DNA of 64,000 bases from an uncultured Myxococcales bacterium (GCA_903840165.1 CAIMEY010000075.1:44365-108364), one strand, 5' to 3'; positions 7,551 through 49,485 are shown, numbered from the stretch's first letter. The notes: a model not told the origin generated them from the letters alone. Made by a program: numbers and translations.

Positions 7551-7688
7551 AGCAACCTCCCTCAAACGTCGCGGGCAATCATGCCTGCTCATCCAGTGAA
7601 GGATTCAACGACCGAAAAGTCAAGGCACTTTGTTGCTGGATCAGGGCCTCAAGCCGCACGGGGCGATAGGCCGGCAGCAGGCCCGGGC

Positions 7689-8816: not shown

Positions 8817-8906
8817 GGTCTTGCTGGTCCTGGGGCGCTGGAGCTGCACGGACGAGGCCCTCTGGCGCATGGGCAGATGCACAAAATCCCTTGATTTTGC
8901 AGAGGA

Positions 8907-18974: not shown

Positions 18975-19057
18975 GGCCTGGTCAAACTAGCCTTGGCGGA
19001 CGGAACTGGCAAGCGCGTCTGCAGGCGGGTATGCTGGCACCGCCTTTGGAGGTCCTC

Positions 19058-22779: not shown

Positions 22780-24111
22780 GTGCGTCGCCTGATCGCCATG
22801 AGCTTGACCATTGTTGTCTTGGTGATCGCCAGCACCGTGGTGCTCTTTGTGCAACTTCGCCAATCGGCAGAGGAAACTCTGTTGGCCCGGGGCCTTGATC
22901 GCGCTTCGGCCCTGGCCATGGCCGCGCGAACGGTTGCGCCGGACGACGGCGTACTGCAGCGCCTTTCCTCGCAACTACTTGACACAACGGTGCTTCACTC
23001 CGTGGTGTTCGACCCAAGAGGCCAACCGCTGACGGCCGCCGATCCAGCCCCGGCCACAGTGGAGGAGGCGGCTACCATCGTTCAAGCCGTTCTGCAGTCT
23101 AACCATTGGCAAGTTCAGAAGAAAGAGGCATGGCTGGCCCTAGACGAATACCGCCTGTGGTACCCGCTGAACGCCGGGCCGGCTGCCGTTCAACTGCAGC
23201 CCGGGCCGCCGACGGGTGGGCCGCGGGTGCTGCTCTTGTCTCTCGACACGACGGCGGCGCAGGCCATGGTGCGCAAGGCGCAACTCCATGCATTTATGAT
23301 TACAGCACTTTTGGCCCTACTGCTGGCCCTGACCGTGCGCCAAGTGCGCCTGGACGCGCGGCAGCGGCAGCAGCGACAACAGCAAGAACAGCAAAGGCGC
23401 TTCTTGGAATTAGGACGTCTATCCGCGGTGTTGGCGCATGAGGTGCGCAATCCCCTGGGGGCCATCAAGGGATTTGCCCAGATCACCGCCGTGCGCTTTG
23501 ACGCCGACGACGACGCGCGGGCCGATATGGACGTAATTGTGAGTGAATGCGAGCGGTTAGAAAGGCTGGTGGAGTCCCTGCTGCGCTACGCCCGGCCTCT
23601 GAGCCTGCAAAGGCAGGCGACAGATGTTTCTGAATTGCTTGATCAAGTCGTCAAGTTGGCGCTGCCGGCCGCGGCAAGTCCGCAGCACACCGTTCACGTG
23701 GCCGTGGCGAGCGCGCCGGTGCTGGCCGACCTCGATCGGGCGCAGATGACCCAAGCCCTGATCAATATCGTGGGCAACGCGCTGCAAGCTATTGGTCCTC
23801 AAGGGGAAATCTGGGTATCGGCCTGGACCGAGGGTTCGACATTGTGGCTCGGGGTCGAAGATGATGGGCCCGGCATTGCGCCGGCGATTCGGCATGAAAT
23901 CTTCGAGCCTTACGTGACGAGCAAAGCCACTGGCACAGGCATCGGTCTAGCCATCACACTGCGCATCGTCCAGGCGCATGCCGGTGAAATCATTGTATTT
24001 GAACGCAATCCGCACGGCACACGCATGGTGGTGAGCCTGCCGAACGCTGTGCTCAGGGGTCAGTTGCCCCAAGCCTTAGCGGCGACCGTCAAGCCAGAGG
24101 TATCGACCTAG
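22780..24111 (+). CDS. Sensor histidine kinase (two TM segments, periplasmic sensor, HisKA + HATPase_c)
   Basis: H-box LSAVLAHEVRNPLGAIKGF, N/G boxes (NIVGNALQAI, DDGPGI, GTGIGLAI); Gln-rich coiled coil after TM2; GTG 22780 or ATG 22798 start. Confidence 0.8.
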   Translation: MRRLIAMSLTIVVLVIASTVVLFVQLRQSAEETLLARGLDRASALAMAARTVAPDDGVLQRLSSQLLDTTVLHSVVFDPRGQPLTAADPAPATVEEAATIVQAVLQSNHWQVQKKEAWLALDEYRLWYPLNAGPAAVQLQPGPPTGGPRVLLLSLDTTAAQAMVRKAQLHAFMITALLALLLALTVRQVRLDARQRQQRQQQEQQRRFLELGRLSAVLAHEVRNPLGAIKGFAQITAVRFDADDDARADMDVIVSECERLERLVESLLRYARPLSLQRQATDVSELLDQVVKLALPAAASPQHTVHVAVASAPVLADLDRAQMTQALINIVGNALQAIGPQGEIWVSAWTEGSTLWLGVEDDGPGIAPAIRHEIFEPYVTSKATGTGIGLAITLRIVQAHAGEIIVFERNPHGTRMVVSLPNAVLRGQLPQALAATVKPEVST

Positions 24112-24198
24112 CGGCAATTGTTTGGGATTGTGCCGCAGCCCTTGGACCGCCGGCCCAAAAGACCTACCCGGGAAATTGTCCAATCGTATTGAGGTTCT

Positions 24199-25551
24199 AT
24201 GACCGAGACTTCGTCCACTGTTGACCAGGCAAAGGCGCGCTTGCTCGTCGTTGATGACCAGTCCGCTTTTCGCCGCCTGCTGCTCCGCATCCTTGCCGAG
24301 GCGGGCTACGAACTGTTTGAGGCGGCCGATGCGCAGACAGCCCTTGAAATGGCCAAGAAAAACGCCGTGGATGTGGTGATTACCGACATCCGCATGCCTG
24401 GGCAGGACGGCCACGGATTGCTTGCGAATCTGCGGCGCGACCTCCCGCAAACGCAAGTGATTTTGCTGACGGCCTACGGTTCGGTGCCCGATGCTGTGGA
24501 GGCGATGAAGCACGGTGCTTGTGACTATCTGACCAAACCTCTTGCCAATCCTGAGGAATTGAGATCGGCTGTTCAACGGGCCCTGCGTCATCGGCGGTCT
24601 TTGCAGGAGCCCCAAGCCCGGGGGCCTGATCCCGAATTGCAACTGGTTTGGGCCGATCCGCAGATGAAGCAAGTCTATGATTCTCTTGTGCGTTTGGCGC
24701 CGACCTCTGCCACGGTCCTACTGCAGGGGGAGACGGGCACGGGCAAGGAAGTGGTGGCGCGGACCTTGCATCAGCTATCCCCTCGTAAAAAGGAGGCTTT
24801 TGTTGCGGTCAATTGCGCCGCGCTGTCCGAAGGGCTGCTCGATTCCGAACTTTTTGGCCATGAGAAGGGGGCCTTCACTGGGGCGGACAGGCAGAGGCAG
24901 GGGCGCTTTGAACTGGCCAATGGCGGTACCCTGCTACTGGATGAAGTGGGCGAAATGAGTCCACTTCTGCAGGTCAAGCTGCTGCGGGTGCTGCAAGAGC
25001 GCAACGTCGTGCGCGTGGGCGGTCATGCCACCCTTGCTGTGGATGTGCGGGTCATTGCTGCGACGCACCGCGACCTGCAAGCAGCAGTGTTAGCAGGGAA
25101 TTTTCGCGAGGATCTCTACTATCGTCTGGCCGTCGTGCCCGTGCGGGTGCCGCCGTTACGGGAGCGTCGTGGCGATATCCTTGTGCTGGCGGAACATTTT
25201 CTGCAGCAACTCAGTCGCCGTTACGGTCGGCAACACATGGTGTTGGATGCTGAGGCGAAAAACGCTTTGCTTGCCTACGTTTGGCCGGGCAATGTGCGCG
25301 AACTCTACAATGTCATGGAGCGAGCCTTGGTCCTGACGACCGGTTCGGTGCTCGGGACTCAAAGCCTCAGCATGGACGGACAACTAGCTGTTTTACAGGC
25401 GGAAACGCCAGTCAACCTGCGCGACATGGAACGGCAGGCCATCCTGCGGGCCCTGGAGGAGTGCGGGGGAAATCGGCGAATGGCGGCGCAGCGGCTCGGC
25501 ATTGGCCTGCGGACTTTGCAGTACAAGCTCAACGACTATGAGTTGCGGTAG
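24199..25551 (+). CDS. Sigma54-dependent response regulator (NtrC family: REC + AAA+ sigma54-activator + Fis-type HTH)
   Basis: REC LLVVDDQSAFRRLL...DVVITDIRMPGQDG; Walker A GETGTGKEV; GAFTGA motif; C-terminal HTH RRMAAQRLGIGLRTLQYKL. Confidence 0.9.
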   Translation: MTETSSTVDQAKARLLVVDDQSAFRRLLLRILAEAGYELFEAADAQTALEMAKKNAVDVVITDIRMPGQDGHGLLANLRRDLPQTQVILLTAYGSVPDAVEAMKHGACDYLTKPLANPEELRSAVQRALRHRRSLQEPQARGPDPELQLVWADPQMKQVYDSLVRLAPTSATVLLQGETGTGKEVVARTLHQLSPRKKEAFVAVNCAALSEGLLDSELFGHEKGAFTGADRQRQGRFELANGGTLLLDEVGEMSPLLQVKLLRVLQERNVVRVGGHATLAVDVRVIAATHRDLQAAVLAGNFREDLYYRLAVVPVRVPPLRERRGDILVLAEHFLQQLSRRYGRQHMVLDAEAKNALLAYVWPGNVRELYNVMERALVLTTGSVLGTQSLSMDGQLAVLQAETPVNLRDMERQAILRALEECGGNRRMAAQRLGIGLRTLQYKLNDYELR

Positions 25552-25807: not shown

Positions 25808-25823
25808 TGGCACGCCCCTTGCA
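25808..25823 (+). promoter_or_regulatory. Sigma54 (-24/-12) promoter TGGCAC-N5-TTGCA upstream of the MYXO-CTERM gene
   Basis: Exact match TGGCACgccccTTGCA about 75 nt upstream of the 25898 start, immediately downstream of the sigma54 activator gene; an unusual AT-rich tract with a T6 run lies upstream at 25700-25750. Confidence 0.65.
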
Positions 25824-25897: not shown

Positions 25898-28051
25898 ATG
25901 CGCTTACGAAAATTATTGCCAATCGTTAGTCTTTTCACAGTCCTTGCCGGAGCCCGCAGCGCCATGGCCTGTGGCGGTTGCTTTTCGCCACCGACCCCGC
26001 AATTGGACCAGACCGTGGTGCAGAACGCCGAGCGTGTGCTGTTCACCCGCGATGAACAGACAAAGGTTTCGCGGGTTTGGGTCGAGGTGCGCTACAGCGG
26101 CCTGGCCAAGGACTTCGGCTGGGTGCTGCCCCTGCCCAAGGTGCCCAAGGTCGGCGTCGGCTCCAAGGTACTCTTTGACGCACTGGACACGCGGATGGCG
26201 ATGCGCTACGCCATGGCCTATGCCCCTGCAGAGAATTGCCGAGGTACCTGGCAGGGTTGCAAGGACTATCCTATGGTGGGCGGCGGCGACTTTGCCGATG
26301 CCTCAGCCTCCGGTGCGGATGTGGCGGGCAGCGACACGTCCAAGAATGGCGGTGGGCCGGGCGTCGAGATTCTCGCTAGTGGCACCACGGGCCCCTATGA
26401 CTATACGGTGGTGCAAGGCGGCAATGCCGATGTGCTGTATACTTGGCTAAACACGCGCGGTTATGCCACGCCGGACAAGGCCAAACCCATCTTGCAGTCG
26501 CACATCACCAAGGGCGACGTCTTTGTTGCGGTCAAGCTGAGCAATGGCCAAGGCGTCGAAGCCATCCGCCCGATTACCTTGGAAATGGCCGACACCGAGG
26601 CCTGCGTGCCCCTGCGCTTGACGTCCATTGCCGCCGCCGATGATTTGGCGGTTGTGGTCACCATCGCCGGGCCGGGGCGAGCGATCGTTAAGAACCACCT
26701 GGATGTAGAGCCCAATCCCTTGCGCATGGCTCTTCTAAACGACCAAGGTACGCCCAACTACAATGGGACGTACATCCCGTGCAATCAGGATGGCCAGTAC
26801 TACTATAGCTGCCAGATTCCTACGAATCTCGCGCAGGTGCAGTCGGCCGCCATCGACGAGGCGGGAGGCCACGCTTTTGTCACCGAGGCGGCGTTCAAGG
26901 GCAGTGACCTGGGTAATCTCCTGAATATGTCTAAGAATTCGGCGGACTGGCTCGCCAAGGTCAAGAACCTCGATGACGTCGCCAACCAACTGGCCGTCGC
27001 CTCGGATTTTCCCGTGAATTCAGAGGTTGGCGATGCCCTCAGTCTGCCCTTGGCCCTGACGACGACCTTCCCGGGCGTCGATCCGGCCCAAGCGCTGGCT
27101 GACTTGCGCGCGTGTGGTCAGTACTGGCAGATGCCCCAGAGTCCAGAGTGCCAGCTTCCCGGCGGATTGGTGTTGACGCATGAGCAGTTGCAGGCCGTGG
27201 CAATCGATGGCGTCGGAGCGCAGACGGCGATGAAGGTGGGCATTATCGACCCCCTGTTCCTGGTTGGCGACCAGTTGGCTGCCGCGCCGATGCTGACCCG
27301 CCTGAGCATGCGCATTTCGCCCAGTGAAATGGACCGTGACCCCGTGTTTTCCTTCAACAGTTCTTTGCCGAAGGTGGACCCGACGCGGGTCATCCTTTCG
27401 AACCAAGTCTGCCTGGATGGCTGGGATACGGGCCCGCAAGCAACGCGCCTTTCCATCGACGGATTAGGTAGTTGGCTGTTCACGGGCAGCAACACCTTGG
27501 ACCCGCGATTTGTCAACGCGCCGACCGCGCTGTGGGTGCGTTTGCAGGACGAGACAGGGCCGGCCATCGACATCGCCACGGCACAGATCAGCCTGATTGA
27601 TACGGCGATCAAGGGCGCGCTGCCGGGCAAGGCCAGCCTGCCGGTAGACCTGAATGTGCAAAAAGGCAAGCCGTGGCAGGCACCTGCCTCAGACCTGATC
27701 GCGACCAAGCAAGGGCCCTGGCATTCGCCCGGTTCCTGGTGTGAGCCGCGGGCGGGCTGGGTGGACGGCAAGCCGGCCCCGAGTGAAACCGACCTGGATG
27801 CCGGCAGCACCGACGTGGCGGGTGATACGCAAGACACTAATTCTACAGGCACTGTCCCCGGCATTGATGCGGCGGGCGGCTGGACCGATGTGCATTCGCC
27901 CCAAGCCACAGCGGCAACTGGTGTTGCGGCGAGCGATAACAGTGGCTGCACCGCTGGGCGTACGCACCGCAGTCAATCCCTTGGATTGTTGATGATTTCT
28001 GGGCTGTTGGCGGCTGTAGTGCTGCGCCGTCGGCAACGCAAGGAGGCTTGA
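25898..28051 (+). CDS. Large secreted protein with N-terminal CGGCF motif (DUF2330-like?) and MYXO-CTERM-like C-terminal sorting tail
   Basis: Signal peptide MRLRKLLPIVSLFTVLAGARSAMACGGCF; C-terminus GCTAGRTHRSQSLGLLMISGLLAAVVLRRRQRKEA (Cys, hydrophobic span, basic cluster), as in the Myxococcales MYXO-CTERM sorting signal. Confidence 0.7.
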   Translation: MRLRKLLPIVSLFTVLAGARSAMACGGCFSPPTPQLDQTVVQNAERVLFTRDEQTKVSRVWVEVRYSGLAKDFGWVLPLPKVPKVGVGSKVLFDALDTRMAMRYAMAYAPAENCRGTWQGCKDYPMVGGGDFADASASGADVAGSDTSKNGGGPGVEILASGTTGPYDYTVVQGGNADVLYTWLNTRGYATPDKAKPILQSHITKGDVFVAVKLSNGQGVEAIRPITLEMADTEACVPLRLTSIAAADDLAVVVTIAGPGRAIVKNHLDVEPNPLRMALLNDQGTPNYNGTYIPCNQDGQYYYSCQIPTNLAQVQSAAIDEAGGHAFVTEAAFKGSDLGNLLNMSKNSADWLAKVKNLDDVANQLAVASDFPVNSEVGDALSLPLALTTTFPGVDPAQALADLRACGQYWQMPQSPECQLPGGLVLTHEQLQAVAIDGVGAQTAMKVGIIDPLFLVGDQLAAAPMLTRLSMRISPSEMDRDPVFSFNSSLPKVDPTRVILSNQVCLDGWDTGPQATRLSIDGLGSWLFTGSNTLDPRFVNAPTALWVRLQDETGPAIDIATAQISLIDTAIKGALPGKASLPVDLNVQKGKPWQAPASDLIATKQGPWHSPGSWCEPRAGWVDGKPAPSETDLDAGSTDVAGDTQDTNSTGTVPGIDAAGGWTDVHSPQATAATGVAASDNSGCTAGRTHRSQSLGLLMISGLLAAVVLRRRQRKEA

Positions 28052-28824
28052 TGGATCTGCGTGCTCGACTGGGGCTATTGGTGTGTAGTTTTAGCGCCTT
28101 AGCGTCGTGTAGCGGCGCTTCGACCCAAGCCGTGGCCCCTGCCCCAGTCCAGCCGCAACCGTCCGCACAGTGTCCGATGCACGCGGCCCATCATCCCTCC
28201 GCCGATGGTTCTGCGCCTGCCAATCCGCATAAAGCCCATGACATTCATCACCGTTTTGACGACCCAGCGCAGTGGGCACCGGTCTTTGACTCGGCCGACC
28301 GCGACGCTTGGCAAAAGGGCGATGCCGTCGTAGCAGCGCTGGGCCTGCCAGCTCAGGCTCGTGTGGCCGATGTTGGCGCAGCTACAGGCTATTTCTCGGT
28401 GCGCTTTGCCCGCGCTTTGCCCCAAGGACAAGTCTGGGGCACGGACATCGAACCGAGGATGGTCGATTACTTGCAAAAAAGGGCCGCGACCGAAGGTTTG
28501 CCCAATCTACACGCAGTGTTGACCAAGGCGACCGAGCCCGAACTGCCAGGGCCCATGGACGTGGTCTTCCTGTGCGACGTCTATCACCATTTGCAGGACC
28601 GCGTCGCCTGGTTCCACCATCTTCGCAAGTACTTAGCGCCGGGTGGTCGCCTCGTGATCGTCGACTTCACCTTGGGCAATATTCCGGTCGGACCGCCTGT
28701 GGCGCAGCGCATTGGCCCCGAGGCGATGGCCGCTGAACTAGCCCAGGCCGGTCTGGTCTTGCAGCGGCGGGACGATTCCCTCTTGCCATACCAGCACTTG
28801 CTTGTGTTTGTGGCGGCGCCGTAG
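28048..28824 (+). CDS. Class I SAM-dependent methyltransferase lipoprotein
   Basis: Lipobox LASCSG; motif I VADVGAATGYFSVRFA; post-I acidic residue; 4-nt overlap (ATGA) with the upstream gene. Confidence 0.75.
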   Translation: MMDLRARLGLLVCSFSALASCSGASTQAVAPAPVQPQPSAQCPMHAAHHPSADGSAPANPHKAHDIHHRFDDPAQWAPVFDSADRDAWQKGDAVVAALGLPAQARVADVGAATGYFSVRFARALPQGQVWGTDIEPRMVDYLQKRAATEGLPNLHAVLTKATEPELPGPMDVVFLCDVYHHLQDRVAWFHHLRKYLAPGGRLVIVDFTLGNIPVGPPVAQRIGPEAMAAELAQAGLVLQRRDDSLLPYQHLLVFVAAP

Positions 28825-28975: not shown

Positions 28976-28991
28976 TGGCACGGACCTTGCT
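28976..28991 (+). promoter_or_regulatory. Sigma54 (-24/-12) promoter TGGCAC-N5-TTGCT upstream of the PqqD-like / ATP-grasp operon
   Basis: Exact TGGCACggaccTTGC about 50 nt upstream of the GTG start at 29040; second such promoter within 3.2 kb downstream of the NtrC-like gene. Confidence 0.65.
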
Positions 28992-29039
28992 TCTATCCTG
29001 ATCAGGCACCACGTTTCGGGGCCAGCAGGAAAGCGCACC

Positions 29040-29288
29040 GTGTACGAACACTTGGCACTCAGCGATTCAGGCTTTCTCTTCGACACGCGGACGGGGAACA
29101 CCTATACCCTTAGCAAAACAGGCACTTTTCTGTTGCGCACCCTGATTGCTGGCGGGACGTGGCAGGAACTTCCGACCCAGCTTGCCGCCACCTATGAGGT
29201 GGACGACGAGACAGCTCGGCGCGATGTGGAACAATTCTCCTTTCGTTTGAAAGACTTGGGTCTAGTCGCGCCGGAGGTCGGCTCATGA
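29040..29288 (+). CDS. PqqD-family peptide-chaperone protein (RiPP recognition-element-like), 82 aa
   Basis: GTG start after AGGAAAG; YEHLALSDSGFLFDTRTGNTYTLSKTGTFLLRTLIAGGTWQELPTQLAATYEVDDETARRDVEQFSFRLKDLGLV follows the PqqD profile (flfd..g..y.LN.tg..iw.l..g.t..ei...l...y.v....a..Dv..f...L...gli). Confidence 0.6.
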   Translation: MYEHLALSDSGFLFDTRTGNTYTLSKTGTFLLRTLIAGGTWQELPTQLAATYEVDDETARRDVEQFSFRLKDLGLVAPEVGS

Positions 29289-30343
29289 AGCCCTGCACCA
29301 TCGCGGTCACCGGGCTCAATGCGACCGACAATCCGGGACCGGGCGTGCCGGTCATTCGCGCAATTCGCCAAGCAAATCCCAACTGTACGATTGTCGGCCT
29401 TGGCTATGATGCCCTGGACCCGGGTGCCTACATGGAGGGCATTGCCGACCACGTCTACCTCATGCCATTTCCGTCCCAAGGCGCTGAAGTTGTTGGGCAA
29501 CGCCTGGCAGCGATTCACGCGCAGACGCCTATCGATGTGCTGATTCCTACGCTTGATTCCGAACTAGCCCCCTACATCAAGCTTGAGCCGGTGCTCCGTG
29601 GCATGGGCATTGCGACCTACCTGCCCAGCGCTGAGGGCCTGCAACTGCGCGCCAAGGATAAGCTTTCGGCCCTGTCGGCCAAGGGCGTGCGCGTGCCCAA
29701 GAGCGTGACCTTGACCGATGCGACCGCCATCGCCCAACTCGACCAGCACATCGAGTTCCCGGTGATGGTCAAAGGGCAGTTCTACGAGGCGTTCATCGCC
29801 TACTCGCCTATGGAAGTACATAGTCATTTCGAACGGTTGCGTGCCAAGTGGGGGCTGCCCGTGGTGCTGCAGGCTTACGTGCCCGGCACTGAGTACGACA
29901 TCACGGCGGTGGGCGATGGCCAAGGGGGGCTGGTGGGCTCGGTGGCCATGAAGAAGATGCAGCTCACCGATAAAGGCAAAGCGTGGGGCGGGGTTACCAT
30001 AGCCGATCCCCAACTGGACGCCTTCGTTGCCTTGACGATGGCGGCCCTGCAGTGGCGGGGGCCGTGCGAGCTGGAAGTGATGCGCGCCAAGGATAGCGGT
30101 GAGTGCTATCTTATTGAAATTAATCCGCGTTTTCCGGCCTGGGTCTATCTCACAGTCGGCGCTGGGCGCAACTTGCCCTGGGCAACAGTGCAACTGGCCT
30201 TGGGGCAAGCGGTCGCACCGATGCCGCCGGCTCCGGCAGGAATCCTGTTTCTACGTCACAGTTTAGATCAAGTCTGCGCGATGGCGGACTTTCAGGCCCT
30301 GACCACGGTGGGGGAACTGCACCGCAAGGAGACCGAGCAATGA
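29285..30343 (+). CDS. ATP-grasp family ligase
   Basis: ATP-grasp fold blocks VMVKGQFYEAF, QAYVPGTEYDITAV, ECYLIEINPRFPAW (E-x-N-x-R catalytic motif); ATGA overlap with the PqqD-like gene. Confidence 0.8.
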   Translation: MKPCTIAVTGLNATDNPGPGVPVIRAIRQANPNCTIVGLGYDALDPGAYMEGIADHVYLMPFPSQGAEVVGQRLAAIHAQTPIDVLIPTLDSELAPYIKLEPVLRGMGIATYLPSAEGLQLRAKDKLSALSAKGVRVPKSVTLTDATAIAQLDQHIEFPVMVKGQFYEAFIAYSPMEVHSHFERLRAKWGLPVVLQAYVPGTEYDITAVGDGQGGLVGSVAMKKMQLTDKGKAWGGVTIADPQLDAFVALTMAALQWRGPCELEVMRAKDSGECYLIEINPRFPAWVYLTVGAGRNLPWATVQLALGQAVAPMPPAPAGILFLRHSLDQVCAMADFQALTTVGELHRKETEQ

Positions 30344-31689
30344 CGCGTCTAGCCTATGAAAAACCAACGATTTTGCGACACAATGCCGCCCTAGCCAACA
30401 AGTTCGGTCGCGCGCCAGGCGTGCGGGCCCTCGAGCGAATTGATGGCGTTAAAGTCCTTGATTTGGTGGCGCAATTTGGTAGTCCGCTCTTTGTCTATTC
30501 CGAACACCGTCTGCGCCGCGCCTACCGCGAGGCGTACCGGGCCTTTTCCCAGCGCTACCCCAAGGTTCAGTTTGCCTGGTCCTATAAGACTTTGTATCTA
30601 GACGCAATTTGCCGTATTTTTCATCAGGAAGGGGCCTGGGCCGAAGTTGTCTCGGAGTATGAATACCAAATGGCGCGGGCCTTGGGCATTGCTGATGCGC
30701 ACATCCTGTTCAATGGCCCCTACAAGCCGGAGAAAGACCTGGAAGTTGCCCTACTTGGCGGAGCACGGGTGCACATTGACCACTACGAAGAACTGTACGC
30801 GGCCGAGCGAATTGCCCGCAAAGCCGGCAGAAAGATTGGTGTTACCCTGCGGATCAGCCTTGACGCTGGCATCCATCCGCGCTGGGACCGCTTTGGCTTT
30901 AACCTGGAAAATGGCGAAGCCCTGGACGCCGCCCGACGCATACACAGTGGTGGGCACCTGACCCTGCAGGGTTTGCATTGCCACATCGGCACTTACATCG
31001 CCGATCCGAGCGCGTACGGTCGTATGGCGGCCAAGCTGGCGGCCCTCGCCCTGCAAGTGCGGCGGGAGACCGGCATGCTGGTGGAAAGTCTTGATTGCGG
31101 CGGCGGTTTTGCCTCCCGCGCGACCTTGCACGCCCAGTATACGCCGGGCGTGGATGCGACGCCGCCCGTGGATGACTATGCCGAAGCCATCAGCCGTGCC
31201 ATCCTCGAGGCGGGCTTTGCCCCCAGTGAACTGCCTACTTTGTTTCTGGAAACGGGTAGGGCGCTGGTCGATGAGGCGGGCTTTCTACTGACCCGCGTCG
31301 TCGGCAACAAGCGCCTGGCCGATGGCACGCGGGCTGTGATTGTCGACGCGGGCGTCAACGTCCTGTTTACGTCGTTTTGGTACCGACACGACGTGTTGCC
31401 GGCCGAGGATCGCGGGGGAATGCTTGAAGATACAGTCGTCTATGGCCCACTGTGCATGAACATTGACGTGGTGCGGCCGTCGGTGCAACTGCCTCCCCTG
31501 GAGGCTGGGGATACCCTGGTGGTCAGGCCGGTTGGCGCGTACAATGTCACCCAATCCATGCAATTTATTCGACTAAGGCCGGCGGTCATCCTTCTAGGCG
31601 AAAAGGGCGAAATCGACGTCATTCGCCGCGCCGAGGAGCTAGCAGACCTCAAGGGTCCAGAGTTCTTGCCTAAACGTTTGACTTCGTAG
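30340..31689 (+). CDS. Group IV PLP-dependent decarboxylase (Orn/DAP/Arg decarboxylase family, LysA-like)
   Basis: FGSPLFVYSEHRLR, PLP-lysine block FAWSYKTLY, HCHIGT, LDCGGGFAS, ETGRALVDEAG, C-terminal GAYNVTQSMQF all match the LysA/SpeC family; ATGA overlap with the ATP-grasp gene. Confidence 0.85.
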   Translation: MTRLAYEKPTILRHNAALANKFGRAPGVRALERIDGVKVLDLVAQFGSPLFVYSEHRLRRAYREAYRAFSQRYPKVQFAWSYKTLYLDAICRIFHQEGAWAEVVSEYEYQMARALGIADAHILFNGPYKPEKDLEVALLGGARVHIDHYEELYAAERIARKAGRKIGVTLRISLDAGIHPRWDRFGFNLENGEALDAARRIHSGGHLTLQGLHCHIGTYIADPSAYGRMAAKLAALALQVRRETGMLVESLDCGGGFASRATLHAQYTPGVDATPPVDDYAEAISRAILEAGFAPSELPTLFLETGRALVDEAGFLLTRVVGNKRLADGTRAVIVDAGVNVLFTSFWYRHDVLPAEDRGGMLEDTVVYGPLCMNIDVVRPSVQLPPLEAGDTLVVRPVGAYNVTQSMQFIRLRPAVILLGEKGEIDVIRRAEELADLKGPEFLPKRLTS

Positions 31690-31835
31690 GGTTTCTAGCG
31701 ATCTGGGGCGATTGTGCCATGGTCCAGCGCTGGCTCCAGTGACGCAGGCCGGACCATGGCGCAGTCCATACCCGCAGAGTTTTGAGATTGATGAACGATT
31801 CCAGTTCGCTTGCTTAGGTAGATTTCGGGGCCTTG

Positions 31836-34073
31836 ATGCCGCAACGCTATCCCACAGTGCTTCCTGCCGCCGCCGAGTCGCAGCTCGACATGGGCTCTGC
31901 TCGCGTGGCGATCGCAGAAAATGTGCGCAATAATAGGGTATTAGCGGCCATGCGCTGGCTGGGCGACGAAGTGCTGGCTGTCTACGGCTTAGTGCTCTTT
32001 GGTGCGCCGCTGCACGCTTCGGTCTTGCTGTTGGCCGCAACTTGGGTGGCCGGCGTGCCCAGTGCGGCCTTGGGGTTGCTGAGTCTGCTGCTGGCTCAGG
32101 GGCTTGCAAGGGTGCTACTGCCCAATTCCTCAGTCTCAGAGCGCAATTGGCTGGCATGCAACGCCCTACTGACGGGCCTCTATCTGGGCGCGCTTTATGC
32201 GCCGAACCTGACCCTGCTGGCGCTCGCGGCCATGGTGACGCTGGCGGGGGTGCTCTTGGCCGCCGCGCTCAGGTCTCTGGTCGATCGATACCTTGGGATT
32301 CCCTTGTTATCGCTGCCTTTTGTTGTAGCCAGCTGGGGAGCGCTTTTGCTGGCGCGCCATTTCCCAGGCCTGCCCTTGGCCAAAGCCGCGCTGGCTGAGC
32401 CGTTGTCGCTGCCGCTGAGCGATGGCCCCCGCGAAATCCTGAGGCTCCTTGCCGCAATCTTCATGCAAAACAGCGCAGTTGCCGGCCTGTTGGTGGGTCT
32501 GGCGTGGCTGTTGTGGTCGCGTTGGAGCCTGATCCTGGCTCTGCTGGGAATCCTCAGTGGGCAGGCGATCTTGGCACTGCTTGGTGGGACGCATACCGGT
32601 ACGGAGTTGGCCCACGTCGGCTTCAACGCGGCGCTTGTGGCGGTGGCCTGTGGTGGTGTTTTTGTCGTTCTTTCAAAGTCTTCCCTGATCGCTGCCTGTC
32701 TTGCCGGTGCCTTGGCGACCCTGCTGGGCATCGCTTTGCAAGGAGCGCTGCTGCCCTTGAACCTGCCCGTGCTCGCGGCGCCTTTTGTCTTGTTGACGCA
32801 AGGACTTCTCTTGGCGCTGCACGGCCGGCTGGGCTCTGGTCCTTTGCAACTGGTGCTTGGGCCACCCCTGCGGCCAGAAGACAATCTTCATCAGGTGTTG
32901 CAGAGCGCGCGCCGCTATCCGCCGGTTGGCATGCCTCTGCTGTACTTGCCTGTGCTTGGGCGTTGGCGCGTGACCCAGGGCCCGCGGGGCGCTTTGACCC
33001 ATCAGGGACAGTGGGCCCATGCCTGGGATTTTGAAGTCGAAAACGACCAAGGCGAGCGATTTCGCGGTGAGGGCCAGGCCGTTCAGGACTTCTATGCTTG
33101 GGGAGCGCCGGTGGTGGCTCCGGGCGATGGACGGGTGGTGCGTGTGATAAATCATCTGGAAGATCAAGAGATTGGCCACGTCGACTTGGCCCACAACTGG
33201 GGCAATATGGTGGTCGTGGCCCACAGCGGCGGCGTATTCTCGGCCCTGAGCCACTTGCAGCAGGGCAGCATCGGCGTGCACGAGGGTCAAACCGTCGTTC
33301 GCGGCGAAGTCCTTGGACGCGTAGGCAATTCGGGCCGATCGCCAGTGCCCCATCTGCACGTCCAGGTGCAAGCGTCAGCCGAGGTGGGCGCGCCGACTCT
33401 GCCCGCCCAGTTCCTCCATTTTCTGCAAATCGCAGTCGATGAGCAGAGTTATCAAACCTGCGGCAGCCCTCAAACCGGTGCGCTTCTGCAGTCTCTAGCG
33501 ACCCAGTCGAGTACAGCCCGCGCTTTCGCCTTTGCGCCAGGCACGCAAATTCACTGGCTTATTCACGGTCAGCAGTTGGGACCACCGCGGCGAGAGACGT
33601 GGTCCAGTGAACTCGATGCCCTGGGCCGCCGGACTTTGAAGTCCAACGGCGCTGCTGCCTCGATTTACATCGACGATTCCTATGCCACTGTGCTGGATTA
33701 CACCGGCCCAGCCGACACCTTGCTGGCCATGTACGCGGTGGCGGCGGCGCGTGTGCCCTTCGCAGCGGCCGACGGCGTGACTTGGCACGACAGTCCGTCC
33801 ATTCTGGCCCATCTGTCCAAACCCGTTAGGATTCTACTTGAATTGCTGATGCCCTTTGGTGCCCAGACGGGGGTTCCCACGCACTCCCGGCTCATGCAGG
33901 GCAGCGATGGCACCTTGGTGCTCGAGACCAAGATCCGCCGCCCGCACCGGCTCATGCGCGCCAAACAACTGCCGGATCGCTTGCAGTTGCTGGTGCAGCC
34001 TGGCGTGGGCCCCACGGCGTTGCGCGCCTATCGCGGCGACCTCTTGTGCCTGGATGCTGAGGTAACACTTTGA
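31836..34073 (+). CDS. Polytopic urea-transporter-like membrane domain fused to M23 (LytM-type) metallopeptidase domain plus C-terminal unknown domain
   Basis: About 330 aa of TM helices containing UT-like half-repeat motifs (FMQNSAVAG; HVGFNAALVAVACGG); M23 motifs HQGQWAHAWDF...HVDLAHNWGNMVVVAH...VGNSGRSPVPHLHVQV; possible TTG start at 31833. Confidence 0.7.
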   Translation: MPQRYPTVLPAAAESQLDMGSARVAIAENVRNNRVLAAMRWLGDEVLAVYGLVLFGAPLHASVLLLAATWVAGVPSAALGLLSLLLAQGLARVLLPNSSVSERNWLACNALLTGLYLGALYAPNLTLLALAAMVTLAGVLLAAALRSLVDRYLGIPLLSLPFVVASWGALLLARHFPGLPLAKAALAEPLSLPLSDGPREILRLLAAIFMQNSAVAGLLVGLAWLLWSRWSLILALLGILSGQAILALLGGTHTGTELAHVGFNAALVAVACGGVFVVLSKSSLIAACLAGALATLLGIALQGALLPLNLPVLAAPFVLLTQGLLLALHGRLGSGPLQLVLGPPLRPEDNLHQVLQSARRYPPVGMPLLYLPVLGRWRVTQGPRGALTHQGQWAHAWDFEVENDQGERFRGEGQAVQDFYAWGAPVVAPGDGRVVRVINHLEDQEIGHVDLAHNWGNMVVVAHSGGVFSALSHLQQGSIGVHEGQTVVRGEVLGRVGNSGRSPVPHLHVQVQASAEVGAPTLPAQFLHFLQIAVDEQSYQTCGSPQTGALLQSLATQSSTARAFAFAPGTQIHWLIHGQQLGPPRRETWSSELDALGRRTLKSNGAAASIYIDDSYATVLDYTGPADTLLAMYAVAAARVPFAAADGVTWHDSPSILAHLSKPVRILLELLMPFGAQTGVPTHSRLMQGSDGTLVLETKIRRPHRLMRAKQLPDRLQLLVQPGVGPTALRAYRGDLLCLDAEVTL

Positions 34074-35200
34074 AGTATTTACAGTTTCAACGATGCCTTG
34101 TGCCAAGCCTCTTGGTCGCCTCAGCGATGGCAGCTGTGCCCGCCTGGGCCGACCCGCTGCCGGCGGTCACGCAACCGGAATTGCCGCCGCCGCAACTGGA
34201 ACAGGCTGACTCAACGTCCGCGCAGCCCGCCCCAGTCGCAGTGCCGGCGACGATCACGCCAAGCGACGCGGGCGAAAAAGTCTATGACGGCAGTGCTTTG
34301 CCTCCCTTCTCCCCGCCCACCCACGAGGCTCCGCTGCCGGCCTTTGCCCCCTTCGATGCGCCGGCCGCTGTCCCTGCGCCTGTCGCAGAAGTGCTTGAAC
34401 ATCCGCCGGTTTGCTCGGGCGGGACGGTCGCGCCCGTTGCCACGTGGCATCCCCACGCCAGTCTGTGGGCGACGCAGTTTCAGTATACCAATCCGTGGAA
34501 TCTTTCTAAGATTCAAGCAGTTTCCCTGGTTGCAGGGGCCGATGCGCCCGGGGGCGGTTGGTGGCTTGCCTCGGCGCAATCGCAGACCGGTCTGCGCTAC
34601 CAAACGAGTGATTTTCGCCAAGATCACAATGTGGTAGGCGGCTACCTGCGCTGGGGACTCTGGCAAGCCGAGGCCGTTCTTGGGCAGGCCTGGACAACAG
34701 CTAGCGATACGGACGGCGCGCGTCTGGGCCAGTTGGGCATAGGCTGGCAGTCGCCGCAATTTGCCGCGCATTTGTCTGCGAGTGCTGTCCGTTATAGCGC
34801 TAGAACTACAGCACAAATCGACCCGAAGCTGTCCTATTTCACCCGCTGGCTCGACCTGTCCCTGGCCGGCCAGGTGCAGACCATTGACGACAACGGTCAG
34901 ACCACCGATTGGCTGGGTTCCGCAGCAATTGCAGCAAATTGGCGTCCCTGGACTCAGGTGAGCGCGACCGCCTTGGGCTGGTACGGGCGGCGGCAATGGC
35001 AGGTCGATGCCCAGGGTGCGTCGCTTTGGAGCAATAATGACCTATTTATAGGCGGTTACCGTATCGAGCTGCGCTACCAGTCTCGCGCTTGGTGGGGGCT
35101 GAGCGCGGTATGGCTGGATGATTTTGGCCGTCAGCAGAATGCCCTGAGTCACAGTTTTCAAGTTCGAGGCGCCACACTGGGGGCCCGCTTTCAGTTCTAA
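34070..35200 (+). CDS. Outer-membrane beta-barrel protein with Pro-rich N-terminal linker
   Basis: Signal peptide MKYLQFQRCLVPSLLVASAMAAVPAWA; alternating hydrophobic strands; C-terminal aromatic residue (ARFQF) typical of BAM substrates; ATGA overlap with the upstream gene. Confidence 0.6.
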   Translation: MKYLQFQRCLVPSLLVASAMAAVPAWADPLPAVTQPELPPPQLEQADSTSAQPAPVAVPATITPSDAGEKVYDGSALPPFSPPTHEAPLPAFAPFDAPAAVPAPVAEVLEHPPVCSGGTVAPVATWHPHASLWATQFQYTNPWNLSKIQAVSLVAGADAPGGGWWLASAQSQTGLRYQTSDFRQDHNVVGGYLRWGLWQAEAVLGQAWTTASDTDGARLGQLGIGWQSPQFAAHLSASAVRYSARTTAQIDPKLSYFTRWLDLSLAGQVQTIDDNGQTTDWLGSAAIAANWRPWTQVSATALGWYGRRQWQVDAQGASLWSNNDLFIGGYRIELRYQSRAWWGLSAVWLDDFGRQQNALSHSFQVRGATLGARFQF

Positions 35201-35271: not shown

Positions 35272-35925
35272 ATGCTGCCCTCGCAACGCTCATGGAATCG
35301 AAAAATCCTCGTATTTTCAGCATTCTCCTGCCTCATGTCGGCTCCGGGCTCTGCCCAAGGGCCTACCCCTGCGGACCGGGTCGCAGCCTTGTTCGAGTCG
35401 TCATTTGCCTATGAAGCCAAGGGCAATAGCAGCAAGGCCCTTGCCGACACGCAGGAAATTCTGCAACTGCAGCCAAGTCACTACGTGGCTAATTTACGAG
35501 CAGGATGGCTGGCTTATGCAACTCAACGCTACGAAGAATCGCTCAATCACTACAACCGTGCGGCGGAGTTGGCACCGCGCGCCGTTGAACCCCAGCTCGG
35601 CGTGCTCTTGCCGTTGATGGCCCTAAAGCGTTGGCCTCAGGCTGAGACGATTGCCAAAGGAATTCTCGCTGTTGTTCCGCGCAATTACTTGGCCAGCAGT
35701 CGCCTGGCATTCACCGAGTTTTCGCTGGCCCACTACCGGCAAGCCGAAGGGCTCTATGCCCAAGTACTCAGCGATTATCCAGGCGATTTAGAGATGATGC
35801 TGGGTCTGGGCTGGACCCAGGTGCGCCTGGGCAAGAAGGATGATGCCCGGGCTGGATTTACGCAAGTTCTTGGTATTAGTCGACAAAATGCCAGTGCAAA
35901 GGCCGGCTTGGAGGCTTGCAAATGA
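35272..35925 (+). CDS. Secreted TPR-repeat protein
   Basis: Signal-like N-terminus; TPR-type Ala/Leu/Tyr periodicity (ALADTQEILQLQPSHYVANLRAGWLAYATQRYEESLNHYNRAAELAP). Confidence 0.6.
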   Translation: MLPSQRSWNRKILVFSAFSCLMSAPGSAQGPTPADRVAALFESSFAYEAKGNSSKALADTQEILQLQPSHYVANLRAGWLAYATQRYEESLNHYNRAAELAPRAVEPQLGVLLPLMALKRWPQAETIAKGILAVVPRNYLASSRLAFTEFSLAHYRQAEGLYAQVLSDYPGDLEMMLGLGWTQVRLGKKDDARAGFTQVLGISRQNASAKAGLEACK

Positions 35926-36575
35926 CATCCAGCATCTTGGCCCGGCGACTACTGTTGTTCACCGGCCTGTGCCTTGAGATTTGGCTTGCCACCGCCTGCA
36001 GCACGGCCGGCAGTGCTACCGCAGCCAACGGTGCAGCCTGTGTTGAAAAGGGTGACTGCGCGTCGAATTTATGTTTGATGTCAAGTATGTATGGCGTCGC
36101 TACCGGCTGGCAAGATGGCGCTTGTACGCAGTCTTGCCTAGGCAGCACCTGTCCGGGAACGAGCGTATGCATCGCCATGGATTCCAACAGCTATTGCCTT
36201 GGTGCTTGCAAAGCGGCCGCTGATTGCCGCATTGGCTACGCGTGCGATCCCTTGCTCGGCGCGTGCGTGCCCAACTGCACCCAGGGCTTTTCCTGTGGCA
36301 GCAAATATATCTGTCAGACCAATGGCTTGTGCCGGACCGCGAGCAGTGGTGGCACCGGCGTACCGGGCAGTTGCAGCGTCGACAACGACTGTCGCGGCAC
36401 CGCCGCCTGTCCTGGGACCCCAAGCCAGGGCTGCGTTTGTGCAATATTATCGACGGGTACCATGGCTTGCCGCGCCGGCTGCACCGCCTCTGCCGATTGC
36501 CCATTGACGTTCGGCGGCGCGCACCTCACCTGCGCAACCACCGGTTACTGCTTGGATCCTGCGGCGGGGGATTGA
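35916..36575 (+). CDS. Cys-rich secreted lipoprotein
   Basis: Signal RRLLLFTGLCLEIWLATAC; about 30 Cys in CxxxxC/GxC modules; overlaps the TPR gene stop by 10 nt. Confidence 0.55.
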   Translation: MQMTSSILARRLLLFTGLCLEIWLATACSTAGSATAANGAACVEKGDCASNLCLMSSMYGVATGWQDGACTQSCLGSTCPGTSVCIAMDSNSYCLGACKAAADCRIGYACDPLLGACVPNCTQGFSCGSKYICQTNGLCRTASSGGTGVPGSCSVDNDCRGTAACPGTPSQGCVCAILSTGTMACRAGCTASADCPLTFGGAHLTCATTGYCLDPAAGD

Positions 36576-39949: not shown

Positions 39950-40023
39950 GCGGCGCGCCCCCTTGAAACTAGAAGCAAACGCAGTAGCTCGGACCCGCAA
40001 GGAACTTCGGGTTAGAGGTCCTA
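39950..40023 (-). repeat. Copy 2 of the ~65-80 nt element abutting a stop codon (degenerate hairpin arm)
   Basis: 86% identity to 7689-7757; its terminal CTA is again the TAG stop (minus strand) of the upstream gene (40021..42888); also sits 50 nt after the convergent helicase stop. Confidence 0.6.
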
Positions 40024-49010: not shown

Positions 49011-49485
49011 GACCAGCGACCGACGCTTGCTGGCTCAGGCGGTCCTGCGTCGACGCGTCAGCGCAGCGCTTGGGCCTAGCCGAGGCAGCCAAAGGTTTGC
49101 ACCTACAGCCGCTTGCGCCTGGAGCGGCGATCGCCCGAGTTGCTTGCACTCATTGTCGAGACGCGAAACCCCCGGTTCAATCTTACACTTTCTTGCGCGT
49201 CGGCATGGCGTGCACCAAGGCCGCCAAGGAAACCCGCGCCGTTACAACGGCCAAACCCACACCACCGACAATTGTTCCCACCAGCACGAGGTTGCCCATG
49301 ATCTGCTCCACGCGGCCAATTCACAGCCAAGTGTGGACGCTAGAACGGTCTGGGGAAAACGCAAAAAAACGATCCAGAATGCACGGTTGTCCCCTGTACT
49401 GCCGGGCAAGAATCGCGCGCCGCGGCAGTTGCAAAACAGGTGTAATTCTGCCGCAGAACTGCGGCAGAACTGCCGCGAACTGTCG

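Follow-up and report, generated by a model that had tools for sequence, protein, structure and literature searches.

Introduction

Several described systems resemble one part or another of the gene cluster analyzed here. In butirosin synthesis (BtrI/BtrJ/BtrK), an ATP-grasp enzyme is combined with a PLP decarboxylase of the alanine-racemase fold that acts on a tethered amino acid, and a hydrolytic step later takes off a group; in rhizoferrin and staphyloferrin B synthesis (FigA/FigC, equivalent to FslA/FslC, and SbnH), a ligase is paired with a conjugate decarboxylase; and in split-B lasso peptide clusters a free-standing PqqD-fold protein is accompanied by a protease and by an enzyme that forms amides at the expense of ATP. 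In the C39 peptidase-ABC transporters a cytoplasmic hydrolase is fused to the conduit through the membrane, which allows cleavage to be coupled to export, and outer-membrane exporters that join TPR repeats to a barrel include PgaA, BcsC, AlgK/AlgE, and Slam.

The cluster lies in a 64,000-nucleotide stretch of DNA from an uncultured Myxococcales bacterium (the window), and differs from each of these systems. Like butirosin synthesis it couples an ATP-grasp enzyme to an alanine-racemase-fold decarboxylase, but the small partner has a PqqD/RRE fold instead of being a phosphopantetheinylated carrier, a BtrH/BtrG-type transferase is absent, and a UT (urea transporter) channel-peptidase and envelope proteins are added; a butirosin-type carrier pathway, which calls for an acyl-carrier protein bearing a phosphopantetheine attachment site, was rejected, there being no PP-binding match in any cassette protein. 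With FigC the decarboxylase has Met and Thr substitutions in common, but the ligase is an ATP-grasp enzyme rather than an NIS synthetase, and no siderophore uptake genes are linked. The decarboxylase also carries a tail resembling the lasso leader motif YxxPxL; nonetheless, no adjacent precursor, asparagine-synthetase-like cyclase, or transglutaminase-fold B2 protease is found in the cassette, and we rejected assignment to the lasso clusters. Unlike the C39 exporters, the cassette has a passive UT-fold conduit in place of an ABC transporter and an M23 or sirtuin hydrolase in place of a C39 cysteine peptidase; unlike the urea transporters dvUT, UT-A, and UT-B, its UT domain is fused to enzyme domains; and although a secreted TPR protein sits beside a protein with signal peptide, TPR repeats, beta-rich part, and aromatic end, much as in the TPR-barrel exporters, and faint TPR_Slam matches occur among the cassette proteins, there is no porin or DUF560 family match and the barrel is a prediction. 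Our best reading, tentative and a little short of even odds, is that the cassette encodes an envelope-spanning system in which an amine-bearing small compound is made in the cytoplasm and exported through a urea-channel-like pore.

A six-gene cassette conserved across phyla

The original prediction described a single sigma-54-driven unit of five genes ending at 35200, and all five open reading frames are present on the + strand: i) a PqqD-family peptide-recognition (RRE-type) protein of 82 aa (29040..29288); ii) an ATP-grasp carboxylate-amine ligase of 352 aa (29285..30343); iii) a PLP decarboxylase of the alanine-racemase fold with FigC-like specificity residues, 449 aa (30340..31689); iv) a UT-M23 fusion, predicted to be an inner-membrane channel, of 746 or 745 aa depending on whether it begins with TTG at 31833 or ATG at 31836 (ending at 34073); and v) a secreted beta-rich protein of 376 aa, a predicted outer-membrane barrel (34070..35200). 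Pfam confirms the domain calls for four of the five (PqqD, ATP-grasp, decarboxylase, and UT with M23). The unit is longer than was thought, however, because a sixth gene on the same strand, encoding a secreted TPR protein of 217 aa with TPR family matches and a signal peptide (35272..35925), is conserved alongside the other five. Two of the three ATGA overlaps that had been described are present (29285 and 30340), but the third (34070) is TTGA, with a TTG start. The gap between the decarboxylase and UT-M23 genes, given as 144 nt, is 143 nt from the TTG start or 146 nt from the ATG, and does contain a hairpin (about 31710..31766, + strand), whose outer stem is 16 bp long in the minimum-free-energy fold. 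Taken whole, the gap is more stably folded than shuffled sequences (-61.6 kcal/mol, z = -2.3); no T-run follows the hairpin, and it has no Rfam family match.

Gene order is constant wherever contigs extend far enough to show the gene in question: a PqqD homolog lies directly upstream of the ATP-grasp gene in 85/85 loci, and the decarboxylase, UT-M23, and downstream TPR genes keep their places in 72/72, 51/51, and 43/43 loci, respectively. These loci include Myxococcota, Desulfobacterota, Bacteroidota, Elusimicrobia, and one Pseudomonadota metagenome-assembled genome (MAG), and their flanking genes vary whereas the order within the cassette does not. Even distant UT-M23 proteins (28-37% identity), one of them in the Pseudomonadota MAG, lie within the same six-gene array, TPR gene included. 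Adjacent genes can be fused, the ATP-grasp to the decarboxylase in P0166 and the PqqD protein to the ATP-grasp in P0230. The genes are thus co-located in related Myxococcota genomes and in other phyla as well; the further claim that the combination matches no described pathway agrees with the searchable literature, where we found no description of it. We conclude that the six genes make up a cassette, apparently undescribed so far, whose order is conserved across several phyla.

The recognition protein and the ligase

The 82-aa protein passes the PqqD family profile comfortably (PF05402, 48.5 bits against a gathering cut-off of 23.4), as the original prediction would have it. Its family profile finds its best PDB matches among lasso B1 proteins (TbiB1, E = 5e-12; TfuB1, E = 4e-10) and matches PqqD itself at E = 0.013, while its top NCBIfam match is lasso_PqqD_Strm (52.3 against a cut-off of 70). 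Judged by these profiles, the protein resembles lasso B1 leader-binding proteins. Recognition domains are usually fused at the N-terminus of an enzyme, as in the PqqD-ATP-grasp protein P0230. The suggestion that the PqqD-like protein might itself be the scaffold found no support: its C-termini differ in length and end residue among homologs, its profile is closest to lasso B1 proteins, and in P0230 it is fused at the ATP-grasp N-terminus. We were also unable to find any conserved small open reading frame besides the PqqD gene in the 80 genome-scan loci (L004-L083), in keeping with the earlier remark that no precursor gene is visible. The presence of a PqqD protein points to a peptide ligand, but a conserved precursor gene is missing from the cassette; this counts against the best reading given above.

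Such a ligand could come from a RiPP (ribosomal peptide) pathway whose precursor gene lies elsewhere in the genome. In such a pathway the recognition protein would bind the leader peptide, the ATP-grasp make an amide or add a residue, the decarboxylase trim, M23 remove the leader, and the UT-fused protein export the peptide. Its logic would parallel that of lasso B1/B2/C; the TbiB1, TfuB1, and lasso_PqqD_Strm matches fit it, P0230, with its N-terminal recognition domain, has the appearance of a typical RiPP enzyme, and the joining of a peptidase to an exporter is reminiscent of the peptidase-containing ABC transporters. All told, we regard this pathway as unlikely.

The ligase matches Pfam ATPgrasp_Ter at 31.1 bits. 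By structure its closest neighbors are PylC and ligases that act on amino acids as small molecules, and the graspetide macrocyclases are far from it. A graspetide (microviridin-type) pathway was rejected, since neither an MdnC/PsnB-type ATP-grasp macrocyclase nor a precursor peptide was found.

A decarboxylase with conjugate-type specificity residues

The decarboxylase matches Orn_Arg_deC_N (102 bits) and Orn_DAP_Arg_deC (54 bits) in Pfam, and among solved structures FslC/FigC (7kh2, 202 bits) ahead of DAPDC (1twi, 148) and BtrK (99). It belongs to neither of the nearest named families. LysA identity was rejected on a score below the lysA TIGR01048 cut-off (223.2 against 297.9 bits), the lack of the specificity-helix Arg, and a Met where an acidic residue follows the catalytic Cys; FslC/FigC membership was rejected on a score far below the NF041039 cut-off (219.7 against 500 bits) and the lack of an NIS synthetase in the cassette. 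The motif GPLCMNID, with Met after the catalytic Cys, is present in 65 of the 66 motif-bearing family members; Thr344 aligns with the DAP-binding Arg343 of MjDAPDC; and of the three named FigC specificity positions two match, Thr327 and Met355, while His357 is replaced by Ile. The same two features, Met after Cys and Thr for Arg, are linked to conjugated substrates in the FigC paper, which also places FigC and BtrK in one clade (PMC7857480). The "DAP-type" specificity originally assigned is therefore abandoned, whereas the analogy to butirosin was a reasonable one, given the BtrK match and the clade that BtrK shares with FigC, the closest solved relative. By alignment, then, the enzyme's specificity residues are those of FigC-type conjugate decarboxylases, not those of LysA.

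Residues 1-32 form a family-specific N-terminal tail (30340..30435, + strand). The pattern [YF]6-x-x-P9-x-[ILV]11 followed by K21-[FYHI]22-G23 occurs in all 67 listed decarboxylase family members, and in distant cassettes with W or shifted spacing; FslC and DAPDC lack the tail, as judged from alignments that begin at query residue 33-34. The tail is similar to the YxxPxL motif of lasso leaders (PMC10368454), and we offer it, as a lead, as a candidate ligand of the PqqD protein.

That FigC acts in rhizoferrin synthesis (PMC7857480) also invites a metal-binding product, for example a carboxylate-polyamine siderophore, or another role in iron or metal homeostasis, with the ATP-grasp standing in for the NIS synthetase and the decarboxylase for FigC or SbnH. 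Flanking genes in Bacteroidota point the same way (DUF2202 ferritin-like proteins in 11-15 loci, hemerythrin in 6, CDF cation efflux in 5, AraC in 23), as does a DUF4405 cytochrome-b-like gene that separates the PqqD gene from the ATP-grasp gene in 5-7 Bacteroidota loci; DUF2202 and DUF4405 are both conserved in ferrosome gene clusters. But most loci lack these neighbors, which are confined to Bacteroidota; clustering of the flanks gave no recurrent TonB-dependent receptor and no recurrent genes for siderophore uptake, and the surroundings of the window's cassette show none; and the PqqD protein and the M23/sirtuin domain would be left unexplained. We therefore consider a metal-related role distinctly unlikely.

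The channel-peptidase fusion

The fusion protein matches UT (PF03253; 123 bits) and Peptidase_M23 (59.6 bits), and its UT part has both the fold and the pore-signature motifs, although it scores far under the Yut ortholog cut-off (TIGR03441; 85.8 against 274.6 bits); the C-terminal 200 aa or so have no recognizable fold. The UT-M23 fusion is listed, without function, in PMC12998343. The canonical HxxxD of M23 is out of register (H395-A-W-D398) and H395 is replaced in 5/30 homologs, so that catalysis is not certain. In sister cassettes the channel carries a CobB-type sirtuin (L089/L090) or a sirtuin plus an EctA-like GNAT (L088) in place of M23. Since sirtuins require NAD and GNATs acetyl-CoA, these substitutions place the channel-fused domain in the cytoplasm, and the K/R bias of UT-M23 is consistent with that location. 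The M23 domain is thus probably cytoplasmic rather than periplasmic, on a predicted topology. M23, sirtuin, and GNAT domains all work on amide bonds.

A further difficulty for the best reading is the narrowness of the UT pore: a product would have to be very small or linear to pass. We infer that transport is outward, but the UT domain might instead do no more than anchor the protein in the membrane, or might serve as a channel for import.

An M23 domain also raises the question of cell-wall peptide remodeling or recycling, in which M23 would cut peptidoglycan-type peptides, a LysA-like enzyme would decarboxylate DAP at a free D-centre, and the ATP-grasp would add a side-chain residue like D-aspartate ligase or Ddl. 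With M23 predicted to be cytoplasmic and replaced by sirtuin in sister cassettes, M23 scores far below every family cut-off, a decarboxylase without the DAP-binding Arg, and few envelope-related flanking genes, such a role seems improbable.

Envelope proteins

The fifth protein has a signal peptide (to AWA|D) and ends in ...ARFQF, but matches no Pfam, NCBIfam, or PDB barrel family, and a homolog search returned only the protein itself. It is nevertheless homologous to a Bacteroidota protein of about 445 aa encoded at the same position (hhalign probability 97.9%, E = 5.6e-13). Proteins of the Bacteroidota family carry TPR repeats along with a signal peptide, and their C-terminal part is beta-rich; the window's protein has a Pro/Ala-rich linker in place of the TPR part. 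The signal peptide, terminal aromatic residue, and beta-rich sequence are what we observe; the outer-membrane barrel of the original description we infer from them. Signal peptides on both the TPR and fifth proteins, and the aromatic residue that ends the fifth, are observations in favor of an envelope-spanning export system.

Promoter and regulators

The cassette is preceded by an exact match to the sigma-54 (-24/-12) consensus, TGGCACGGACCTTGC (28976..28990, + strand), as had been claimed (TGGCAC-N5-TTGC). The pattern occurs 3 times in the 64-kb window, against 0.53 expected, and 10 related Myxococcota-type loci likewise carry an exact match at the equivalent place, 66-110 nt ahead of the PqqD motif. 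The -24 GG/-12 GC spacing is that of a sigma-54 promoter, and an NtrC-type activator gene lies 3.4 kb upstream, next to a histidine kinase gene (kinase, HisKA/HATPase_c, 22780-24111; activator, Response_reg, Sigma54_activat, and HTH_8, 24199-25551; both on the + strand). Homologous kinase/activator pairs (50-68% identity) are found upstream of the cassette in Myxococcota loci L004-L009, and a double-ATP-grasp variant is likewise flanked by a sigma-54-type kinase/regulator pair; Bacteroidota cassettes have AraC or LuxR regulators instead. The kinase and NtrC-type activator (22780-25551) are probably the regulators of the operon in the Myxococcota lineage. The proposal of a single sigma-54-driven unit is thus supported at the level of the sequence.

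Nitrogen assimilation is often under the control of sigma-54 and an NtrC-type regulator, and UT proteins, being passive channels, conduct either way, so that the cassette might serve uptake or nitrogen scavenging. Under sigma-54/NtrC control, a small amide or a compound like urea would come in by way of the outer-membrane protein and then the UT channel, to be processed within the cell. One would not expect a catabolic route to include a recognition protein or a ligase that consumes ATP, however, the regulators differ by phylum (AraC, LuxR), and genes for urease, amidase, or glutamine synthetase are not linked to the cassette; uptake is highly improbable.

A possible pathway for synthesis and export

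In the envelope-spanning system that we tentatively favor, the operon would be turned on from its sigma-54 promoter in the Myxococcota lineage, probably by the adjacent kinase and NtrC-type activator. The ATP-grasp would join a carboxylate to an amino acid by an amide bond, with the PqqD-type recognition protein positioning a peptide-like partner for the ligation; the PLP decarboxylase would then take the alpha-carboxyl off the still-conjugated amino acid, as FigC, SbnH, and BtrK do; and the M23 domain, or sirtuin in sister cassettes, lying in the cytoplasm where the UT channel opens, may cut an amide and free the product. The amine-bearing product would exit through the channel, and then cross the periplasm and outer membrane by way of the TPR protein and the TPR/beta-rich protein.

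Organization of the cassette

All five head-to-tail genes of the original prediction were found as plus-strand open reading frames: a PqqD-like gene (29040-29288, 82 aa), an ATP-grasp gene (29285-30343, 352 aa), a decarboxylase gene (30340-31689, 449 aa), a gene fusing a urea-transporter (UT) fold to an M23 metallopeptidase domain (31833/31836-34073, 746/745 aa), and a fifth gene for a beta-rich protein (34070-35200, 376 aa). The extent then proposed was one gene too short: a TPR protein gene (35272-35925), conserved in the cassette, also belongs to it. The three ATGA overlaps that had been read at the gene junctions hold for the first two; the last is a TTGA overlap with a TTG start, which gives the fifth protein a good signal peptide, MKYLQFQRCLVPSLLVASAMAAVPAWA↓D. 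The expected hairpin is present in the gap after the third gene, and the gap itself, put at 144 nt, measures 143-146 nt. This long hairpin (about 31710-31766) lies 3′ of the decarboxylase gene, and, over its full length, the gap forms a more stable fold than shuffled versions do (z = -2.3); the hairpin has no T-run 3′ of it and no Rfam family, nothing credible emerged from Rfam for structured RNA between 25000 and 37000, and the operon contains no terminator-like site except a weak one within the UT gene.

The domain calls agree with Pfam: PqqD (48.5 bits), ATPgrasp_Ter (31 bits), two Orn/DAP/Arg decarboxylase domains, and, in a single protein as had been claimed, UT (123 bits) with Peptidase_M23 (59.6 bits). 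The fifth protein matched nothing in Pfam or NCBIfam, and none of the cassette proteins reaches a curated NCBIfam family cut-off. We also considered a defence system and rejected it, PADLOC families matching none of the cassette proteins.

Conservation and spread

The same genes occur on an identical contig from lake metagenomes. When aligned ATP-grasp homologues were used to scan GTDB, with each species represented by a single genome, at least 530 ATP-grasp relatives were confirmed, and the 80 best loci were retained; these come from Myxococcota, Desulfobacterota, many Bacteroidota (including the cultured Prolixibacter bellariivorans and Maribellus), Elusimicrobia, Chlorobiota-labelled MAGs, Balneolaceae, and Marinimicrobia. 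Co-location across related genomes, named at the outset as a check, is evident: the cassette is kept in every examined locus, with one gene order wherever the contig is long enough. Specifically, i) the PqqD-like gene lies directly upstream of the ATP-grasp gene in 85/85 loci; and, on contigs of sufficient length, ii) the decarboxylase is found in 72/72 loci, iii) the UT-M23 fusion in all 51, and iv) a TPR protein of ~210 aa in 43/43. The six-gene array is likewise found around distant UT-M23 proteins of about 30-35% identity, including one from a Pseudomonadota MAG. Because the flanks are unrelated between lineages, we regard the cassette as a self-contained module. Extra genes in some Bacteroidota cassettes (DUF4405, T9SS-tail proteins, ~480 aa ORFs) were rejected as core components since none is universal, which makes them accessory genes or insertions, and so were the upstream DUF2330 and methyltransferase genes, which are unlinked to the cassette in other loci.

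Between the UT-M23 and TPR genes there is usually one gene of 300-590 aa, absent from that position in a few loci (L017, L020-L022, L066). Most versions of this fifth protein start with a signal peptide, continue with TPR repeats and a beta-rich region, and end in an aromatic residue; the window copy has a Pro/Ala-rich linker instead of the TPR part. A word-indexed homologue search with the window copy found itself alone, and a profile search of the PDB matched in the TPR part only; the Myxococcota and Bacteroidota forms are homologous (hhalign probability 97.9%, E = 5.6e-13), and the beta-rich region may form an outer-membrane barrel.

Promoter and regulation

The exact sigma-54 promoter that had been claimed, TGGCACGGACCTTGC, is present at 28976-28990, about 50 nt 5′ of the first start codon. 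Ten related loci also have an exact TGGCAC-N5-TTGC, placed 66-110 nt 5′ of the PqqD motif, and this conservation supports a functional promoter. A histidine kinase and an NtrC-type sigma-54 activator are encoded at 22780-25551, and the cassettes of related Myxococcota loci are preceded by homologous kinase/activator pairs. In Bacteroidota cassettes, regulators of the AraC or LuxR type take their place.

The exact sigma-54 consensus occurs a second time at 25808-25822 (TGGCACGCCCCTTGC), some 75 nt 5′ of a gene (25898-28051) whose 717-aa DUF2330 product has a signal peptide and whose end is overlapped by a SAM methyltransferase gene (28048-28824). These two genes separate the NtrC-type regulator from the cassette and may belong to the same regulon as the latter. 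A third exact TGGCAC-N5-TTGC (48847-48861) falls within overlapping ORFs (47778-49010, minus; 48788-49489, plus) and adjoins the gene for a 574-aa radical-SAM protein (49486-51210, minus strand).

Decarboxylase and ATP-grasp

No catalytic motif of the decarboxylase is lost: AWSYKT, which holds the PLP lysine, HCHIGT, GGGF, and the catalytic Cys are all present. Its score reaches neither the LysA nor the FslC cut-off. Among solved structures it is closest to the N-citrylornithine decarboxylase FigC/FslC (202 bits); archaeal DAPDC (148) and BtrK (99) follow. Specificity in these enzymes is determined directly after the catalytic Cys, where DAPDC, ODC, and ADC have an acidic residue and FigC has Met, and on the specificity helix, with Arg343 in DAPDC and Thr327 in FigC (PMC7857480). 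Met follows the catalytic Cys (GPLCMNID) in 65/66 motif-bearing family members, and Thr344 of the window enzyme aligns with the Arg343/Thr327 position; these residues contradict a DAP-type specificity for the enzyme that had been called DAP-type. We infer that it probably acts on an amino acid after its side chain has been conjugated, as FigC, SbnH, AcsE, MccE, and BtrK do. The ATP-grasp appears to be an amino-acid ligase for small substrates, not one of the known peptide macrocyclases.

The link of the decarboxylase to FigC, together with recurrent DUF2202, DUF4405, hemerythrin, CDF, and AraC neighbours in Bacteroidota, would suit a metal-binding product; such neighbours occur in a minority of loci, however, and uptake genes do not recur in the flanks, so that we consider such a product quite unlikely.

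Sister cassettes and the channel fusion

A search of 1.84 billion representative proteins returned only 226 clusters at E <= 1e-30; many proteins of ~715 aa among the matches are tandem double ATP-grasps. The sister cassettes are built as follows. L089/L090 encode, in order, a secreted TPR protein, PqqD, a double ATP-grasp, the decarboxylase, and a UT-sirtuin fusion (11544-13217); L088 encodes TPR, a 477-aa PqqD-ATP-grasp fusion (P0230, 3550-4983), a degenerate ATP-grasp, the decarboxylase, and a UT-sirtuin-GNAT fusion (7233-9344); and L086/L087 encode PqqD, an ATP-grasp-decarboxylase fusion (P0166, 871 aa; L086 8001-10616), and a 637-aa protein without a UT match. Cassettes whose UT carries a sirtuin (L088, L089/L090) have two ATP-grasp modules. 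The sirtuin domains match CobB-type NAD-dependent protein deacylases (190-216 bits), and the GNAT domain of L088 is nearest to small-amine acetyltransferases such as EctA. Since the sister cassettes and fusions keep these parts, the common core is a recognition protein, one or more ATP-grasps, a conjugate decarboxylase, a UT channel with an amide-acting domain, and a secreted TPR protein.

D398, H473, H506, and H508 of the M23 domain are invariant, and the first metal-binding His does not follow the canonical HxxxD register; the domain is likely, though not certain, to be active. Over 30 UT-M23 homologues, Lys+Arg averages 3.3 in the N-terminus, 6.5 in the post-UT linker, and 1.4 in the central loop, which is net acidic. 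This bias indicates that both termini would face the cytoplasm, and M23 is therefore predicted to lie inside the cell. Sirtuins require NAD and GNATs acetyl-CoA, so the domain fused to the UT channel is again predicted to be cytoplasmic; the cofactor argument and the charge bias agree. Remodelling of peptidoglycan peptides conflicts with this predicted location and with the sirtuin that replaces M23, and the decarboxylase is missing the DAP-binding Arg; we judge it very unlikely.

Recognition protein and decarboxylase tail

A profile of 31 PqqD-like members matches the lasso leader-binding B1 proteins TbiB1 (E = 5e-12) and TfuB1 (E = 4e-10), as against E = 0.013 for PqqD itself, which points to a peptide-binding role. 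As had been claimed, no precursor ORF is visible: when all ORFs between 18 and 95 aa long from the 80 genome-scan loci and their surroundings were clustered, no conserved candidate emerged, only the PqqD gene and antisense shadows recurring. Nor is the suggestion that the PqqD-like protein is itself the scaffold supported; its C-terminus was rejected as an attachment site since the tails are acidic and vary in length and last residue, leaving no fixed acceptor. A RiPP pathway with its precursor encoded elsewhere would accommodate both the B1-like protein and the PqqD-ATP-grasp fusion, but neither the self-contained, mobile cassette nor the narrow pore fits, and we regard such a pathway as unlikely.

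The decarboxylase carries an N-terminal extension of ~32 residues that FigC and DAPDC lack (alignments begin at query residue 33-34). Listed family members share the tail pattern [YF]6-x-x-P9-x-[ILV]11 and K21-[FYHI]22-G23; K21, 15 residues downstream of the [YF]xxPx[ILV] motif, is invariant across M23-type cassettes, and distant cassettes keep variants of the tail (in L085 the Y is W, and in L089 the pattern is shifted). The motif resembles the lasso leader motif YxxPxL read by B1 proteins (PMC10368454). A tail profile searched against PDB chains found no lasso leader and chance matches only (E > 0.1), so the likeness is one of motif. Because the cassette has no precursor gene, we propose that the PqqD-like protein may bind this tail. 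The decarboxylase might then be its own carrier, the PqqD-like protein gripping the tail while the ATP-grasp, a structural neighbour of PylC, acylates K21 with an amino acid, the tethered residue being decarboxylated and the product cut off at the pore by M23 or, in sister cassettes, a CobB-type acyl-lysine deacylase for export. If true, this would be a recognition-domain-guided, lysine-tethered small-molecule assembly line without a separate precursor or carrier gene; it is, we stress, a doubtful proposal, since the tail profile brought up no lasso leader, the tail motif is short and was noticed after the fact, and P0166 keeps YVRPSI but has Arg, not Lys, at +15.

A possible mechanism

The mechanism we consider most likely, at somewhat less than an even chance, has five steps: i) the ATP-grasp would ligate an amino acid, the PqqD-like protein positioning a peptide-like partner; ii) the conjugate would be decarboxylated; iii) M23 (or the sirtuin) would cleave the amide at the cytoplasmic mouth of the channel; iv) a small amine-bearing product would pass the UT pore; and v) the TPR/beta-rich pair would carry it across the outer membrane. 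Gene content, folds, residue patterns, fusions, and conservation stand as observations; the chemistry, the topology, the transport direction, and the outer-membrane barrel are predictions. The opposite direction of transport, uptake or nitrogen scavenging, leaves both the ligase and the recognition protein unexplained, and seems to us most improbable.

Accessory genes and the wider window

A predicted Cys-rich lipoprotein (219 aa, lipobox LATAC, 35916-36575) overlaps the end of the TPR gene; homologues lie 3′ of the cassette in several Myxococcota loci (L004, L005, L006, L009, L012, L015), with about five tandem matches in L006, and are not found in Bacteroidota cassettes. Some of the latter contain or adjoin a DUF4405 cytochrome-b-like membrane protein, a DUF2202 ferritin-like protein, a hemerythrin, or a CDF cation-efflux protein; members of this metal-linked group are inserted between the PqqD and ATP-grasp genes in L027, L028, L029, L058, and L072, and other such sites are L072 5874-6560, L043 7571-8308, and L042 6477-7427. 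Ferrosome (fez) gene clusters reportedly conserve both DUF4405 and DUF2202. About 12 Bacteroidota loci have secreted proteins of about 260-310 aa within or beside the cassette (for instance L044 1380-2309, L054 5331-6140, L066 11070-11849, L071 8938-9729); the L071 protein, the sole one scanned, has a type IX secretion C-terminal sorting domain, and the others cluster with it. An extra ORF of ~480 aa with small ORFs between the decarboxylase and UT-M23 genes (L040 12504-13952; L050 12503-13963) looks like a mobile or unrelated insertion. Elsewhere in the window lie genes for an M2 peptidase resembling angiotensin-converting enzyme (341 bits; 18845-20875), for a protein of 955 aa in which a Dictyostelium-type CTDC repeat occurs seven times (40021-42888, minus), and for a DUF2169 protein of 819 aa (16515-18974, minus).

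Relation to known systems and significance

Nearest in working are ligase-plus-conjugate-decarboxylase pathways (butirosin BtrJ/BtrK; rhizoferrin FigA/FigC). The cassette differs from the first in lacking an acyl-carrier protein and from the second in lacking an NIS synthetase; its family scores are sub-threshold and it fails the defining tests of both. It likewise fails those of lasso and graspetide pathways, having no precursor, no cyclase, and a distant ATP-grasp. A UT-M23 fusion has been listed once, without function (PMC12998343), and beyond that bare listing we found no description of the cassette in the full-text literature.

The mix is unusual in joining a RiPP-type recognition protein without a precursor gene, an amino-acid ligase, a conjugate decarboxylase, and a UT fusion, and in joining the UT fold to interchangeable, predicted-cytoplasmic amide-acting domains (M23, sirtuin, GNAT). 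To our knowledge these parts were not previously known to work together. Experiments are feasible, as Prolixibacter bellariivorans and Maribellus species are both cultured and cassette-bearing. Solving the cassette would name a new secreted metabolite, probably an amine, that numerous anaerobes of sediments and fresh water produce; would give a function to UT-fold proteins other than urea transporters; and could show recognition domains acting outside classical RiPP pathways.
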